Of a DNA stretch of 16,720 nucleotides, positions 9,202-16,372 are shown piece after piece. Under the pieces are notes generated by a model. The model ran no database searches. It saw only the letters and a program-made list of their open reading frames with translations, and had not been told where the DNA came from. Position numbers and translations under genes: made by a program. Source of the stretch: Aquificaceae bacterium (GTDB lineage Bacteria > Aquificota > Aquificia > Aquificales > Aquificaceae); NCBI GenBank assembly GCA_037924335.1, contig JAXSMZ010000030.1, forward strand, positions 1 to 16,720, read 5' to 3'. How positions within the stretch are numbered: position 1 is the stretch's first letter; every line of letters starts with the position of its first letter.

Positions 9202-12000
9202 ATGGTAGGCTGGATACTGAAAAAGCTTATAGGTACAAAGAACGAAAGAGAGGTCAAAAGGCTAACTTCCCTAGTAAAGAAAGTTACGGAAAAAGAGAAG
9301 GAACTTGATCGGCTTAGCAATTTAGAACTGCTTGAGCTGGCCAGAAGCTTAAAGGAAAAGGTTGCAACTGACGAAAGACTAAAGGAGGTCATACTCAAGG
9401 GTGGTGTGGAGGATGAGGTCATATTAGCCTTTGCCCTTGTGAGGGAAGCTGGCAAGAGAACTATAGGTCTTAGATTCTTTGATGTACAGCTCATAGGCGG
9501 TTTTGTCCTCCATCAGGGTAAGATAGCCGAGATGAAAACTGGTGAGGGTAAGACCTTGGTTGCCACGTCGGCCGTGTACGTGAATGCCCTAACAGACAGA
9601 GGAGTTCACGTGGTAACAGTCAACGACTACCTGGCAAGAAGGGATGCTCAGTGGATGGGCCCCATCTATAAGTTTCTTGGGCTTGATGTTGGTGTTATAA
9701 ACTCAGACTACTCTTCTTACAGGGTCGATTGGGTGAGTGAGGATGCTCTCATGGAAGCCATAGATAAGAACGTGAGAGTCTGGCCAGAGGGATACCTTGA
9801 AGATATCTTACCTTCAGAAAAGATAGACGCAAGGGCTAAGAAAGCTTTCTTTACTAAACTGACTCTCTGTAATAGAAAGGAAGCATACCAGGCACACATT
9901 ACCTATGGAACTAACAACGAATTTGGTTTTGATTATCTCAGAGATAACATGGCTTTCTCTTTGGATGACATTGTTCAGGTGAAGGGGCACAACTATGCCA
10001 TAGTAGACGAGGTAGACTCAATACTCATAGACGAGTCAAGAACTCCACTGATAATATCTGGACCATCCCAGATGGACACAGCCGTGTATTACAGCGCCAA
10101 CGATGTGGTTAAAAAGCTGTCCAAGGAAGAGGACTTTACAGTAGATGAGAAGAACAGGAGTGTACTGCTTACAGAACAGGGGATAAGAAAGATTGAATCC
10201 TTTCTTGGCATAGACAATCTTTACGATATAAAGCATATAGACCTTTTGCATGCCGTAAACCAAGCCCTTAGAGCTCATCAACTCTTCAAAAGAGACGTTC
10301 ATTACATAGTTAGGGATGGTGAGGTTCTCATAGTGGATGAATTCACTGGAAGGGTACTGCCAGGAAGAAGGTGGAGCGAAGGTCTTCATCAGGCAATTGA
10401 AGTTAAAGAGGGCGTCAGTGTGCAGCAGGAGAATCAAACCTTAGCAAGCATAACCTTCCAAAACTACTTTAAGCTCTATAACAAGCTTGCCGGTATGACC
10501 GGAACTGCAGAAACAGAAGCCCTTGAGTTTAAAGAAATATACGGCCTTGATGTGGTTGTTGTCCCAACTCATAAGCCGGTGAAAAGATATGACCATCCAG
10601 ATTTGGTTTACAAGACAAAAAAGGAAAAATGGCTCTCAGTTGTAGAGTACATAAAACAAGAGCACAGCAAAGGAAGACCTATACTTGTTGGCACAGTGTC
10701 CATAGAAGATTCTGAGCATCTCTCTTCTTTGTTAAAAAAGTATGGTATACCTCATAACGTTCTGAACGCAAAACAGCACGAGAGGGAAGCTGAGATAATA
10801 GCTCAGGCTGGAAGGCTTAGCAGTGTCACCATATCCACCAACATGGCTGGCAGGGGTACGGACATACTGCTCGGTGGAAACCCAGAGTATTTAGCCAAAG
10901 AAATACTCAGCAAAAAGGGAAAGACCTTAGAAAATGCCACGCAAGAGGAATGGAAGTCAGCTTTGGAAGAAGCCTATAGGATAACAGAGGAGGAAAAGAA
11001 AAGGGTTGTAGAGCTTGGTGGCCTTTTGGTCATAGGTACAGAAAGGCATGAATCGAGGAGGATAGACAACCAACTTAGAGGAAGGGCTGGAAGGCAAGGA
11101 GACCCTGGAGAATCCAGATTTGTACTCTCCTTAGAAGATGACCTTCTCCGTATATTCGGTGGAGACAGAGTAAAGAGGATGATGGACTTTTTAAAGATAC
11201 CCGAAGGAGAACCTATAGAGAGCAGAATGGTTACAAAGGCTATACAGAACGCCCAAAAGAGGGTAGAAGCCCAGAACTTTCAGATAAGGAAGAGACTTCT
11301 TGAGTACGATAACGTCATGAACACACAAAGGCTTACAGTTTATGGGATAAGAAGGGACATATTAGAGAACAAGGGATTGAAAGAGTATGTAGAGGAGTTT
11401 GTGCGTGATATTTTAGAATACAGAGTGAACACTCTTCTCGTTGAAGATGAGCCAGAACTTTGGGACACTAAGCCCCTTGCCGATTACCTCGAGGAGCTCA
11501 CAAAGACAAAAGTAGAGATTCCACAGGTAAGAGACAAACAAGAACTCATAGAGAAGCTATCGGAAGATGTTCTGAGCATTCTCAACGGAAAGGAAGAGCA
11601 AATAGGTGAGAGTCTCTTCTTTGAGATAACAAAGGTGGTGCTCTTGAACAACCTTGACCACCTTTGGAGGGAGCATCTTCATGTTCTCGACAGAGTGAGA
11701 GAGGGAATATACCTAAGAGGATACGCTTCCAAGGACCCGTTGGTTGAGTATAAGAAGGAAGCCTTCTATCTCTTTGAGAATATGATGTTAAACTTCAAGG
11801 AGAGTGTTTTGTCAGACCTTCTAAGGGTAGAAGTGAAATCTCAAGAAGATATTCAAGAAGAGGTCAAGAAGGAAGAGGAAGAAAGAGAAAGGTTATTACA
11901 GCAAGCTGTTTTTAGTGGTGCGCCTGGGAAAAAGGATGAGGGAGGACCAAAGAGGAAAACCTTAAAGGAAAGGCTTCAATCAAAAAGAAGGGTCAAGTGA
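9202..12000 (+). CDS. secA: Preprotein translocase ATPase SecA
   Basis: 932 aa; MKTGEGKT, VTVNDYLARRD, DEVDSILIDESRTPLIISG, STNMAGRGTDI, QLRGRAGRQGDPG; ~50-aa insert in NBD1; no C-terminal Cys-rich zinc motif. Confidence 0.99.
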   Translation: MVGWILKKLIGTKNEREVKRLTSLVKKVTEKEKELDRLSNLELLELARSLKEKVATDERLKEVILKGGVEDEVILAFALVREAGKRTIGLRFFDVQLIGGFVLHQGKIAEMKTGEGKTLVATSAVYVNALTDRGVHVVTVNDYLARRDAQWMGPIYKFLGLDVGVINSDYSSYRVDWVSEDALMEAIDKNVRVWPEGYLEDILPSEKIDARAKKAFFTKLTLCNRKEAYQAHITYGTNNEFGFDYLRDNMAFSLDDIVQVKGHNYAIVDEVDSILIDESRTPLIISGPSQMDTAVYYSANDVVKKLSKEEDFTVDEKNRSVLLTEQGIRKIESFLGIDNLYDIKHIDLLHAVNQALRAHQLFKRDVHYIVRDGEVLIVDEFTGRVLPGRRWSEGLHQAIEVKEGVSVQQENQTLASITFQNYFKLYNKLAGMTGTAETEALEFKEIYGLDVVVVPTHKPVKRYDHPDLVYKTKKEKWLSVVEYIKQEHSKGRPILVGTVSIEDSEHLSSLLKKYGIPHNVLNAKQHEREAEIIAQAGRLSSVTISTNMAGRGTDILLGGNPEYLAKEILSKKGKTLENATQEEWKSALEEAYRITEEEKKRVVELGGLLVIGTERHESRRIDNQLRGRAGRQGDPGESRFVLSLEDDLLRIFGGDRVKRMMDFLKIPEGEPIESRMVTKAIQNAQKRVEAQNFQIRKRLLEYDNVMNTQRLTVYGIRRDILENKGLKEYVEEFVRDILEYRVNTLLVEDEPELWDTKPLADYLEELTKTKVEIPQVRDKQELIEKLSEDVLSILNGKEEQIGESLFFEITKVVLLNNLDHLWREHLHVLDRVREGIYLRGYASKDPLVEYKKEAFYLFENMMLNFKESVLSDLLRVEVKSQEDIQEEVKKEEEERERLLQQAVFSGAPGKKDEGGPKRKTLKERLQSKRRVK

Positions 12001-12105
12001 CTTCCTCTCCTCATTAAAATGAGGAGCTTCCCTTTCTCAGGGCTTAACTTCCCGTCAGTCCAACGGTAGGGCATAGATTACTGCCTATGCCAGACAGGTT
12101 TATGT
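11997..12105 (-). ncRNA. Putative TnpB-type omegaRNA (reRNA) scaffold inside the mini-element
   Basis: Extended -10 TG-G-TAAAAT (12120..12112) followed by three hairpins (12091..12070, 12066..12052, 12026..12007) ending at the RE TCAC; 5' end is estimated. Confidence 0.5.
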
Positions 12106-12166
12106 ATTATTATTTTACCACAATTCATCTCTCCTTTGAAAAGGAGAGCCTTCTTGTGGAGGTTTC
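11997..12166 (-). mobile_element. 170-bp non-autonomous IS200/IS605-family element (PATE/MITE-like), no transposase or TnpB gene
   Basis: Minus strand: flanking target TTAC (12170..12167); LE hairpin CTCTCCTTT/AAAGGAGAG (12148..12129) preceded by AAGG; RE hairpin CTCCTCATT/AATGAGGAG (12026..12007) preceded by GAAG; ends in TCAC (12000..11997). Removing it restores clean stops for both secA and tsaC. Confidence 0.85.
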
Positions 12167-12776
12167 GTAAACTTTTGGCAAATTGGATGAAATCTTCAAA
12201 GGCTATGTTCCCCCTTCTTACCAGCCTAAGACCTCTTTTACCTATTAGCTTTACTACTGTGGATGGTTCTCCTTCGATTTTTCCAGCATCTACGTACAGG
12301 TCAACGCTATCTCCAAAGTAATCCATCCCCATCTTTACATCAACGGATGGTTTTAGTCCTTCTGGGTTTGCAGAAGGTGCAACAAGGGGCAAACCCATAG
12401 CCTTCAAAACATCCCTTACAAAGGTTCTTTCCCTTGGTAATCTAAAGGCTAAGCTTTTCCTTCCTCTTGTAAGGTAACCATACCTATTGTATTTGAGATA
12501 AAAGATAAGGGTGACTCCAGAGTCCAAAAGGTTCAAGTGAAAAGAGCTTGCTCTGACAGGAAATATTCTAATGTGCTCCTTACTTGGAAGCAAGACTATG
12601 AAAGGCCTTTGCGATTGTCTTCTCAAAAAGAACAGCCTTTCCACGGCTTTCCTGTTTGTGGCATCCGCCAAAAGACCGTATATGGTATCCGTAGGCGCAA
12701 AGACTATCCCACCTTCCCTTAAAGTGTTAACAGTGTAATCTATGACATGCTTATCTGTGATCTTTATGACTTTCAT
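12078..12776 (-). CDS. tsaC: L-threonylcarbamoyladenylate synthase (YrdC/Sua5 family, single domain); last 29 aa derive from the inserted element
   Basis: PTDTIYGL, AFRLP, APSANPEG, PSTVV motifs; ATGA overlap with thrC. Confidence 0.9.
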   Translation of the reverse strand: MKVIKITDKHVIDYTVNTLREGGIVFAPTDTIYGLLADATNRKAVERLFFLRRQSQRPFIVLLPSKEHIRIFPVRASSFHLNLLDSGVTLIFYLKYNRYGYLTRGRKSLAFRLPRERTFVRDVLKAMGLPLVAPSANPEGLKPSVDVKMGMDYFGDSVDLYVDAGKIEGEPSTVVKLIGKRGLRLVRRGNIAFEDFIQFAKSLRNLHKKALLFKGEMNCGKIIIHKPVWHRQ

Positions 12777-14149: not shown

Positions 14150-15062
14150 TATAATAACCCAATATAACTTGAACATCACTGGAAAGGTCATCCAGAAAAC
14201 AAGGATAGGCTAATAGCTATAATTCAAGAGCTTGAAAGGAAAGGTCTCTTAAAGGAGGTAATTCACATAAACCCCAGAAGGGCGTCCGCCATGGAGGTTG
14301 CTTTAAATCATGACCCTGCATACATTCAAGAGATAGCGGACTCTTGCTCCGCAGGTGGTGGATACCTTGACCCAGATACCTATACAGTGCCAGCCTCTTA
14401 TGAGGTAGCCCTTTACGCAGTGGGTGGAGTGCTTGAGGGCATAGACAGGCTCTTGAAAAAAGAGGTTGATGCGGTATTTTGTGCAATAAGACCACCAGGA
14501 CACCATGCGGAGCACTCTAAGGCTATGGGCTTTTGCCTTTTCAACAACATAGCCATAGGTGCTCACTATCTTCTCCAAAAGGGCTTTGAAAGGGTATTTA
14601 TAGTGGATTTTGATGCCCACCATGGGAATGGTACTCAAAGGAGCTTTTACGAAGATGATAGAGTTTTCTACTTCTCTTCTCACAAATATCCCTTCTATCC
14701 CGGCACTGGGTCAGCTCAAGAAAAGGGTGCAGGCAGAGATTATGGTTTTACTCACAACGAGCCTCTTCCTGCAGGTGCAGGAGACAAGGAGTTTGACAGG
14801 ATATGGTGAGGTCTTTCCTAAACTTTTCTATGAATACTCGCCCCAGTTTCTTCTTGTCTCCGCAGGCTACGACGCCCACAGAGAGGACCCACTAACATAT
14901 CTTAATCTTTCCACAGAAGGCTTTGGAAGGCTCGTGAGCCATCTAATTGAAAACGCAAAAAGGCTTTCTATCCCTGTCCTCTTTGTCCTTGAAGGGGGCT
15001 ATAACCTAAAAGCCCTATCAGAATGTATAAGCCTTACCATAGAGAGGTTGCTGGAAGTATGA
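14150..15062 (+). pseudogene. Histone deacetylase-family (AcuC/AphA-like) deacetylase, disrupted
   Basis: Homology begins upstream of the called ORF (LEHHWKGHPENKDRL from 14168) behind an in-frame TAA (14165-14167) with no ATG. RPPGHHA, GFCLFNN and DFDAHHGNGTQ are in one frame; SAGYDAH and LEGGY are in another after a frameshift at ~14801-14804. Confidence 0.88.
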
Positions 15063-16300: not shown

Positions 16301-16372
16301 GGGCGATTAGCTCAGAGGCAGAGCGCTATCCTCACACGGTGGAGGTCGGAGGTTCAAGTCCTCCATTGCCCA
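16301..16372 (+). tRNA. tRNA-Val(CAC), CCA not encoded
   Basis: Cloverleaf: acceptor GGGCGAT/ATTGCCC, D arm GCTC/GAGC, anticodon arm CTATC-CTCACAC-GGTGG (CAC at 16333-16335), T arm GGAGG-TTCAAGT-CCTCC, discriminator A followed by TTAT. Confidence 0.93.

Follow-up and report, generated by a model that had tools for sequence, protein, structure and literature searches.

The window analysed here is a contig of 16,720 nucleotides (JAXSMZ010000030.1, forward strand) from an Aquificaceae assembly (GCA_037924335.1; genome G000), which comprises 1.53 Mb in 39 contigs and is fragmented, with contig ends often lying inside other tnpB families. At the point where secA and a tsaC-like gene overlap tail to tail, an overlap already present in the empty allele, the window carries a compact, gene-less element of 170 bp. 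This element is a non-autonomous member of the IS200/IS605 group, a palindrome-associated transposable element (PATE), and carries the template of the TnpB guide RNA (omegaRNA) of its parent. On the minus strand, TTTAC is followed by 14 nt, the tetranucleotide AAGG, a left hairpin, the sequence TG-TAAAAT, a structured stretch of 95 nt, a right hairpin, TCAC and the flanking DNA (Table 1). A mini-element with both subterminal hairpins had been proposed at this position from the letters of the window alone (hereafter the original prediction), and the features that it described are present where it placed them. The element is too short for a transposase and reads only the tail of the host gene and the last codons of the parental tnpB; a scan of 4227 Rfam families gave no match over it at E ≤ 1. 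Folding of the region as single-stranded DNA is markedly stable (z = −4.7; 0/200 shuffles as good), folding of a 108-nt RNA less so (z = −2.6; 2/200), and that of a 145-nt RNA including the guide only slightly (z = −1.7; 15/200).

A BLASTN search of the host genome with the 170 bp identified the sister copies that the original prediction had called for: nine two-ended copies of 147–218 bp sharing the same ends, the studied copy counted and the left hairpin damaged in two, together with one copy lacking the left end, one right-side fragment, a 51-bp form consisting of the ends only and a 706-bp form. TTTAC precedes 10 of the 11 left junctions in this genome and TTTAT the other, with T at position −5 in all 11; the target tetranucleotide TTAC that had been named is therefore present, but the motif is really the pentamer TTTAC. 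The right end is TCAC in 12 of 13 copies. Insertion occurs 3′ of the conserved motif without target duplication, and the predicted empty allele, TTAC directly followed by TTGACCC, was found in a genome of the same genus (G006; flanks 91% identical), from which precisely the element is absent, with no duplication. Four hot-spring metagenome runs were also compared with the window; reads from other copies and other organisms add to the depth over the element, which was not taken as copy number. In run X6, one contig skips positions 11997–12166 with otherwise identical flanks (30 letters on the short side, minimum likeness 90), whereas in runs X4 and X5 contigs reach into the element across each of its two ends. 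Within the species, the site is therefore likely to be polymorphic. The sister copies and the empty site together fix the boundaries of the element. Mini-elements 85–87% identical occur in a different genus (G084). A pattern scan of the genome collection gave two loci, both mini-elements, which were kept out of the counts because their sequences were already included, and among viral contigs there were no exact matches to a 29-nt left-end pattern and two loci with relatives of 52–54%. The 51-bp derivative (G000 C1:182142-182192), in which the two ends share one fused hairpin, resembles the 52-bp PATE of Haloquadratum.

The interior of the element can be traced to a tnpB gene, namely to its 3′ end. 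A 25-nt interior pattern located 15 metagenome loci, in three of which (L083, L078 and L087) a tnpB coding sequence enters the scaffold; the last 75 nt of the element are identical to the tnpB 3′ end in L083 and differ by one change in L078. Two full-length TnpB proteins of 436 aa (P0002 and P0003; PF01385, PF07282) read in frame through the scaffold, P0002 at 94% over residues 419–436. In the host genome itself, the 706-bp form (C2:31809-32514) has the same ends, the same 5′ hairpin and broken tnpB pieces 52–79% identical to P0002, and is, to judge from its sequence, the decayed direct parent. The claim that a tnpB-bearing parent shares the ends and interior is thus borne out by the tnpB 3′ ends of L083 and L078 and by this decayed element. 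At least four different deletion junctions retain the scaffold from the 5′ hairpin onward. The identity with the tnpB end, the decayed parent in the same genome, the covariance-model match and the covarying helices (both described below) indicate that the mini-element is almost certainly an internal deletion of a tnpB element in which the whole omegaRNA was retained. In L062, a left end and TAAAAT are followed, 9 nt further on, by a tnpB-like start matching the N-terminus of P0001, and the promoter-like site of the mini-element is therefore probably the tnpB promoter of the parent. In L143, tnpA lies directly before a tnpB of the same clade; among the loci examined, none combined an intact compact-scaffold tnpB with both element ends on a single contig.

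The omegaRNA was analysed in an alignment of 34 scaffolds (20 compact and 14 long) against a 26-pair structure drawn from the same sequences, which favours it: 97.0% of 861 cells are paired, as against 35–48% in slid controls, and 13 pairs show two-sided changes. Four helices and a pseudoknot resembling that of ISDra2 covary. Stem 4, the right-end hairpin, has two-sided changes in 6 of its 8 pairs and ends 10 nt before the end of the scaffold. In the pseudoknot, the loop GGACU pairs with positions −6 to −3, in register with the ISDra2 pseudoknot, in 97.8% of cells, with a two-sided change in one of the four pairs and two pairs that never vary; the variable pair is U-A in 21 rows, C-G in six, U-G in three and A-U in one, and is unpaired in three. 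The loop of stem 2 has 5 nt in the 20 compact rows, while in the 14 long rows it measures 26–28 nt and includes an additional stem; no ISDra2-type stem 3 was found in the mini-element or in its parent. Because the parent also has the 5-nt loop, stem 3 was lost in the parent, before the mini-elements arose. A covariance model trained on 18 long scaffolds that lie next to tnpB in other genomes gave one match in the window (84.4 bits, E 5.6e-22), although the model is not wholly independent, since 13 of the 18 scaffolds had been excised by means of a motif from the mini-element. These results uphold the original reading of the interior as an omegaRNA, including the pairing of a hairpin loop with AGTC near the right end, and supply the match to TnpB omegaRNAs that it had put forward as a check. 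Processed omegaRNAs of 79–466 nt have been reported, so that 95 nt is short yet within range; stem 3 is not universal among them, and the feature used as a criterion is a hairpin on the 3′ side no more than 10 nt from where the scaffold ends (PMC10278001; here and below, published systems are compared as described in passages of the cited papers). The mini-element has such a hairpin.

The ends follow the pairing rule of IS608. In the IS608-type rule, the fourth guide base pairs with position −1 of the cleavage site. In IS608 itself, the left guide AAAG is matched with the cleavage site TTAC and the right guide GAAT with TCAA, and guide bases 1 and 2 pair with positions −3 and −4 (PMC5934647, PMC3201880). 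Among 30 distinct related left ends, 28 have the motif that the rule predicts 13–16 nt upstream, and they fall into the classes TTAC, TTAG and TCAC, in agreement with the pairing that had been proposed for this element; guide and motif change together among these ends, which are kin and hence yield no independent statistic. The left-hairpin 20-mer also bounds L040, an element of genome G014 with both tnpA and tnpB.

Gene-less omegaRNA elements are ordinary in this group, as follows from the counts of scaffolds without tnpB. The covariance model gave 23 matches in the host genome, namely 16 whole scaffolds without a tnpB of their own, five after tnpB ends, one fragment and one cut by a contig end; 10 of the 16 belong to the family of the studied mini-element and six to a second family with TTAA flanks. 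Across the taxonomic family, 34 of 90 genomes have a match, and the 30 best-per-genome loci retrieved comprise 15 that follow tnpB, 13 that do not and two too short to tell. The members of the second family lie at C4:2101-2224, C2:113716-113839, C23:8380-8503, C2:130286-130409, C20:9576-9695 and C19:606-726; the left flank is TTAA in five, the right end is GTTCAC or GTTCAT, and three have a near-consensus promoter (TTGACA-17-TATAAT). The tnpB of this second family is represented in the host genome by broken or contig-cut pieces only (C16, C37, C39 and the end of C1). Nested elements were also observed: at L124 (G000:C4:54731-55210), a mini-element of the studied family occupies the tail of what is left of a different tnpB, next to a tnpB remnant of a third family. 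At L061, L062, L078, L081 and the start of C37 in G000, unrelated transposase-like sequence interrupts or borders compact-scaffold elements and a tnpB.

The protein clade to which the cognate TnpB belongs has an unusual catalytic region. In an alignment of 83 homologues, the aspartates of RuvC-I and RuvC-III are kept in 82 each (one gap and one N), and the residue two places after the RuvC-II glutamate position is invariantly acidic (D in 81, E in two). Rearranged RuvC-II sites that are predicted to stay active have been described (PMC10691335). The closest TnpB relatives (P0004, P0005, P0007, P0086 and P0087) come from assemblies labelled archaeal or WOR-3, which reflects either broad horizontal dispersal among hot springs or errors of binning. 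Two long tnpB frames in the host genome (C23:178-1700, 455 aa; C1:154600-155800, 363 aa) belong to other clades, and neither is cognate to the scaffold of the mini-element. Related autonomous elements occur elsewhere (L040 and L143).

TTAC and TCAC differ at one base, and the stop codon of secA therefore becomes TGA in place of TAA on insertion, leaving the SecA protein untouched, whereas the TsaC-like protein exchanges its last 5 residues for 29. Elsewhere in the window, translations read by eye show a DNA methyltransferase-like open reading frame (407 aa) beside a possible restriction endonuclease frame (232 aa) at the contig start (227–2148, minus strand); a deacetylase-like gene at 14291–15062 is split into two overlapping frames (172 and 150 aa) by a frameshift or an assembly error, and a tRNA gene lies at 16301–16372 on the plus strand (Rfam RF00005, 61.8 bits).

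Table 1. Features of the mini-element and of the adjoining host genes (window coordinates).
Feature	Position	Strand	Basis or remark
Whole mini-element (PATE), 170 bp	11997..12166	-	Sister copies with exactly the same ends; precise absence in G006 and run X6
Target motif TTTAC, outside the element (left cleavage site TTAC at 12170-12167; predicted transposon-associated motif, TAM)	12167..12171	-	Own-genome junctions; retained in empty site
Left DNA guide AAGG	12149..12152	-	Guide predicts flank motif in 28/30 related left ends, three motif classes
Left-end subterminal hairpin	12129..12148	-	Outer stem 12159-12154 with 12123-12118; same 20-mer in L040
Promoter-like site TTCAAA-17-TAAAAT with TG	12112..12140 (TG-TAAAAT 12120-12112)	-	Predicted function
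omegaRNA 5′ hairpin	12070..12091	-	Two-sided changes in 4/7 pairs; 96.8% of cells paired
omegaRNA stem 1 (CCGTT-GGACT-GACGG)	12052..12066	-	Two-sided changes in 2/5 pairs; loop GGACU, 5′ pseudoknot strand 12060-12057
omegaRNA stem 2, closed by 5-nt loop (stem 3 absent)	12030..12042	-	All 4 pairs in 32/34 rows
Right DNA guide GAAG and right-end hairpin (omegaRNA stem 4)	12007..12030; hairpin 12026-12007	-	Covariation
3′ pseudoknot strand AGUC (12002-11999) and right cleavage site TCAC (12000-11997)	11997..12002	-	
Predicted 16-nt guide in flanking host DNA	11981..11996	-	Matches sequence 3′ of TTAC in empty allele
Host secA	9202..12000	+	Protein unchanged; stop TAA to TGA supplied by right end of element
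Host Sua5/YrdC (TsaC-like) gene	12078..12776	-	PF01300; last 5 residues replaced by 29 read from element

The explanation that we favour, and consider likely, is that the element is a PATE derived from a tnpB element, mobilised in trans by TnpA and giving rise to the predicted omegaRNA. The ancestor was almost certainly an IS605/IS1341-type tnpB element of ~1.5 kb, whose left end and tnpB promoter became joined to the last ~35 tnpB codons, a segment that holds the entire omegaRNA scaffold and the right end. Movement would proceed by the single-strand peel-and-paste reaction of a Y1 TnpA acting in trans, presumed to share the known TnpA chemistry, with insertion 3′ of TTTAC. An omegaRNA of ~110–125 nt would most likely be made, either from the element's own promoter or by read-through, itself likely, from the thrC and tsaC-like genes, which have the same orientation; its 3′ guide would be the flanking DNA, and its use as a guide is assumed from the TnpB literature. 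With a cognate TnpB, the TTTAC-flanked empty allele left by excision could be cut and the element copied back, as in the model of Meers et al. That the family has been selected for a working omegaRNA is probable, while guide activity in the present host is rather doubtful; because its partners were not found in the assembly, the studied copy may be intact but idle.

Several results weigh against this explanation. The supply of TnpA and TnpB in trans on which the original prediction relied was not seen in the host assembly, fragmented as it is: neither Pfam nor tblastn searches found a Y1 TnpA there, the seven genomes of the genus gave a single weak match inside a 1408-aa frame, and there was no intact cognate TnpB in the host genome, in G006, in G013 or in the 54%-complete G084, the best matches among 178 genomes of the phylum being 45–55% identical. 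The RuvC-II glutamate position is occupied by Q in all 83 homologues, and a glutamate further downstream, present in 63 of the other 76, is Q in all seven closest proteins. The extended −10 promoter that had been proposed is present as TG-TAAAAT but does not exceed expectation (one found, 0.4 ± 0.6 in shuffles). Compensatory changes in the scaffold may have been inherited from different parents rather than selected in the mini-elements, and in one mini-element type (L082) the deletion cuts into the 5′ hairpin. Finally, the 51-bp derivative and the copies with damaged left hairpins indicate that decay is under way.

These points leave room for an orphan passenger, an element that spread only through its two ends and a passing TnpA and whose omegaRNA is inherited DNA no longer used by any TnpB. 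The missing partners, the decayed and ends-only copies and the non-canonical RuvC-II of the parent all fit such a history, as does the fact that the right-end hairpin and TCAC are required for transposition anyway. It is nevertheless the scaffold-bearing form that multiplied (nine two-ended copies against one ends-only form), several independent deletion junctions end a short way upstream of the scaffold, all 10 mini-elements of this genome retain the pseudoknot pair, with three pair types, and the second, separate mini-element family retains a near-consensus promoter and scaffold; we therefore regard the orphan passenger as fairly unlikely. In the seven closest proteins, both candidate positions for the RuvC-II glutamate hold Q; together with the many guide-bearing mini-elements per genome, this might instead suggest a domesticated, nuclease-dead (TldR-like) TnpB that the mini-elements program to bind or repress chromosomal sites. 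This was rejected as very improbable, since the catalytic aspartates of RuvC-I and RuvC-III are kept, the acidic residue that invariably follows the Q at a distance of two places resembles a rearranged site, none of 13 guides has TTAC plus a 10-nt match anywhere in the genome, and the element is polymorphic and mobile.

The flanking sequence raises one further alternative. The predicted guide corresponds to the end of the tsaC-like gene and is antisense to the final secA codons, as the original prediction had pointed out, and a cis-antisense RNA regulating secA could be imagined. However, every copy has a different flank and hence a different guide, the tail-to-tail gene overlap predates the insertion, and the site is empty in G006 and X6; such regulation was rejected and is scarcely credible. 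Because the guides all differ and none of the 13 has a genomic TTAC plus 10-nt match, they appear to address only empty alleles, and the antisense match is incidental, a by-product of the insertion site for which a meaning finds no support.

On a bolder reading, tentative and less likely than not, the family might be viewed as a naturally minimised OMEGA system (for obligate mobile element-guided activity), in which a 95-nt scaffold lacking stem 3 works with a hot-spring TnpB of ~436 aa having a rearranged RuvC-II, and in which gene-less swarms, repeatedly arisen and shared between genera, parasitise a TnpB that visits occasionally. If so, the nuclease, guided by RNA and stable to heat, would be compact, with TTTAC as its TAM and a predicted, rearranged catalytic site.

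This family offers a parent, mini-elements, a predicted TAM and guide and a naturally occurring empty allele, which makes the mini-element a tidy test of the published claim that TnpB acting in trans protects gene-less elements from loss and that the omegaRNA is hence kept. The short scaffold and the QDD-type TnpB are, in addition, a modest lead for compact, thermostable editors. The literature on TnpB mini-elements and clades, surveyed by titles and abstract openings, yielded no study of this family, which does not show that none exists.

Among known systems, the ends resemble those of IS608, with which the mini-element shares a left cleavage site, TTAC, lying outside the element, a guide tetranucleotide on the 5′ side of each hairpin and a right cleavage site 10 nt from the hairpin, differing in having AAGG, GAAG and TCAC in place of AAAG, GAAT and TCAA and in its preference for the pentamer TTTAC (PMC5934647, PMC3201880). 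The scaffold resembles the omegaRNA of ISDra2 TnpB in the pseudoknot of the stem-1 loop with positions −6 to −2, in stem 2, in the use of the right-end hairpin as stem 4, in its overlap with the tnpB 3′ end and in the 3′ guide drawn from the flank; it differs in length (95 nt versus 116 nt) and in lacking any stem 3, of which the engineered Trim2 removes only stem 3b (Nakagawa et al., PMC10097598). The mini-element also has an extra 5′ hairpin, a predicted TAM of TTTAC instead of TTGAT and a cognate TnpB with QDD at RuvC-II. For standalone omegaRNAs, the published demonstration reportedly concerned mainly IscB, with the effector in the same genome, unlike the mini-element described here. Such standalone omegaRNAs are described as working in trans (Altae-Tran et al., PMC10691335). 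The PATEs of Haloquadratum walsbyi likewise have subterminal palindromes, no terminal inverted repeats and no target duplication, are too short to code, and include tnpB elements reduced by core deletion to as little as ~52 bp, comparable to the 51-bp form in G000; they are archaeal, and omegaRNA analysis is absent from the passages compared (PMC3119063). In Geobacillus stearothermophilus, PATEs are protein-free IS200/IS605 derivatives with left and right ends and often encode omegaRNAs on which the TnpB of another element acts in trans, but tnpA and tnpB are present in the same genome, whereas neither was found in G000, and the TAM and scaffold family are others (Meers et al., 10.1101/2023.03.14.532601). 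PATEs with trans-acting omegaRNAs are thus already in print, and the mini-element adds to them a clean and unusually compact example rather than a new class of system.

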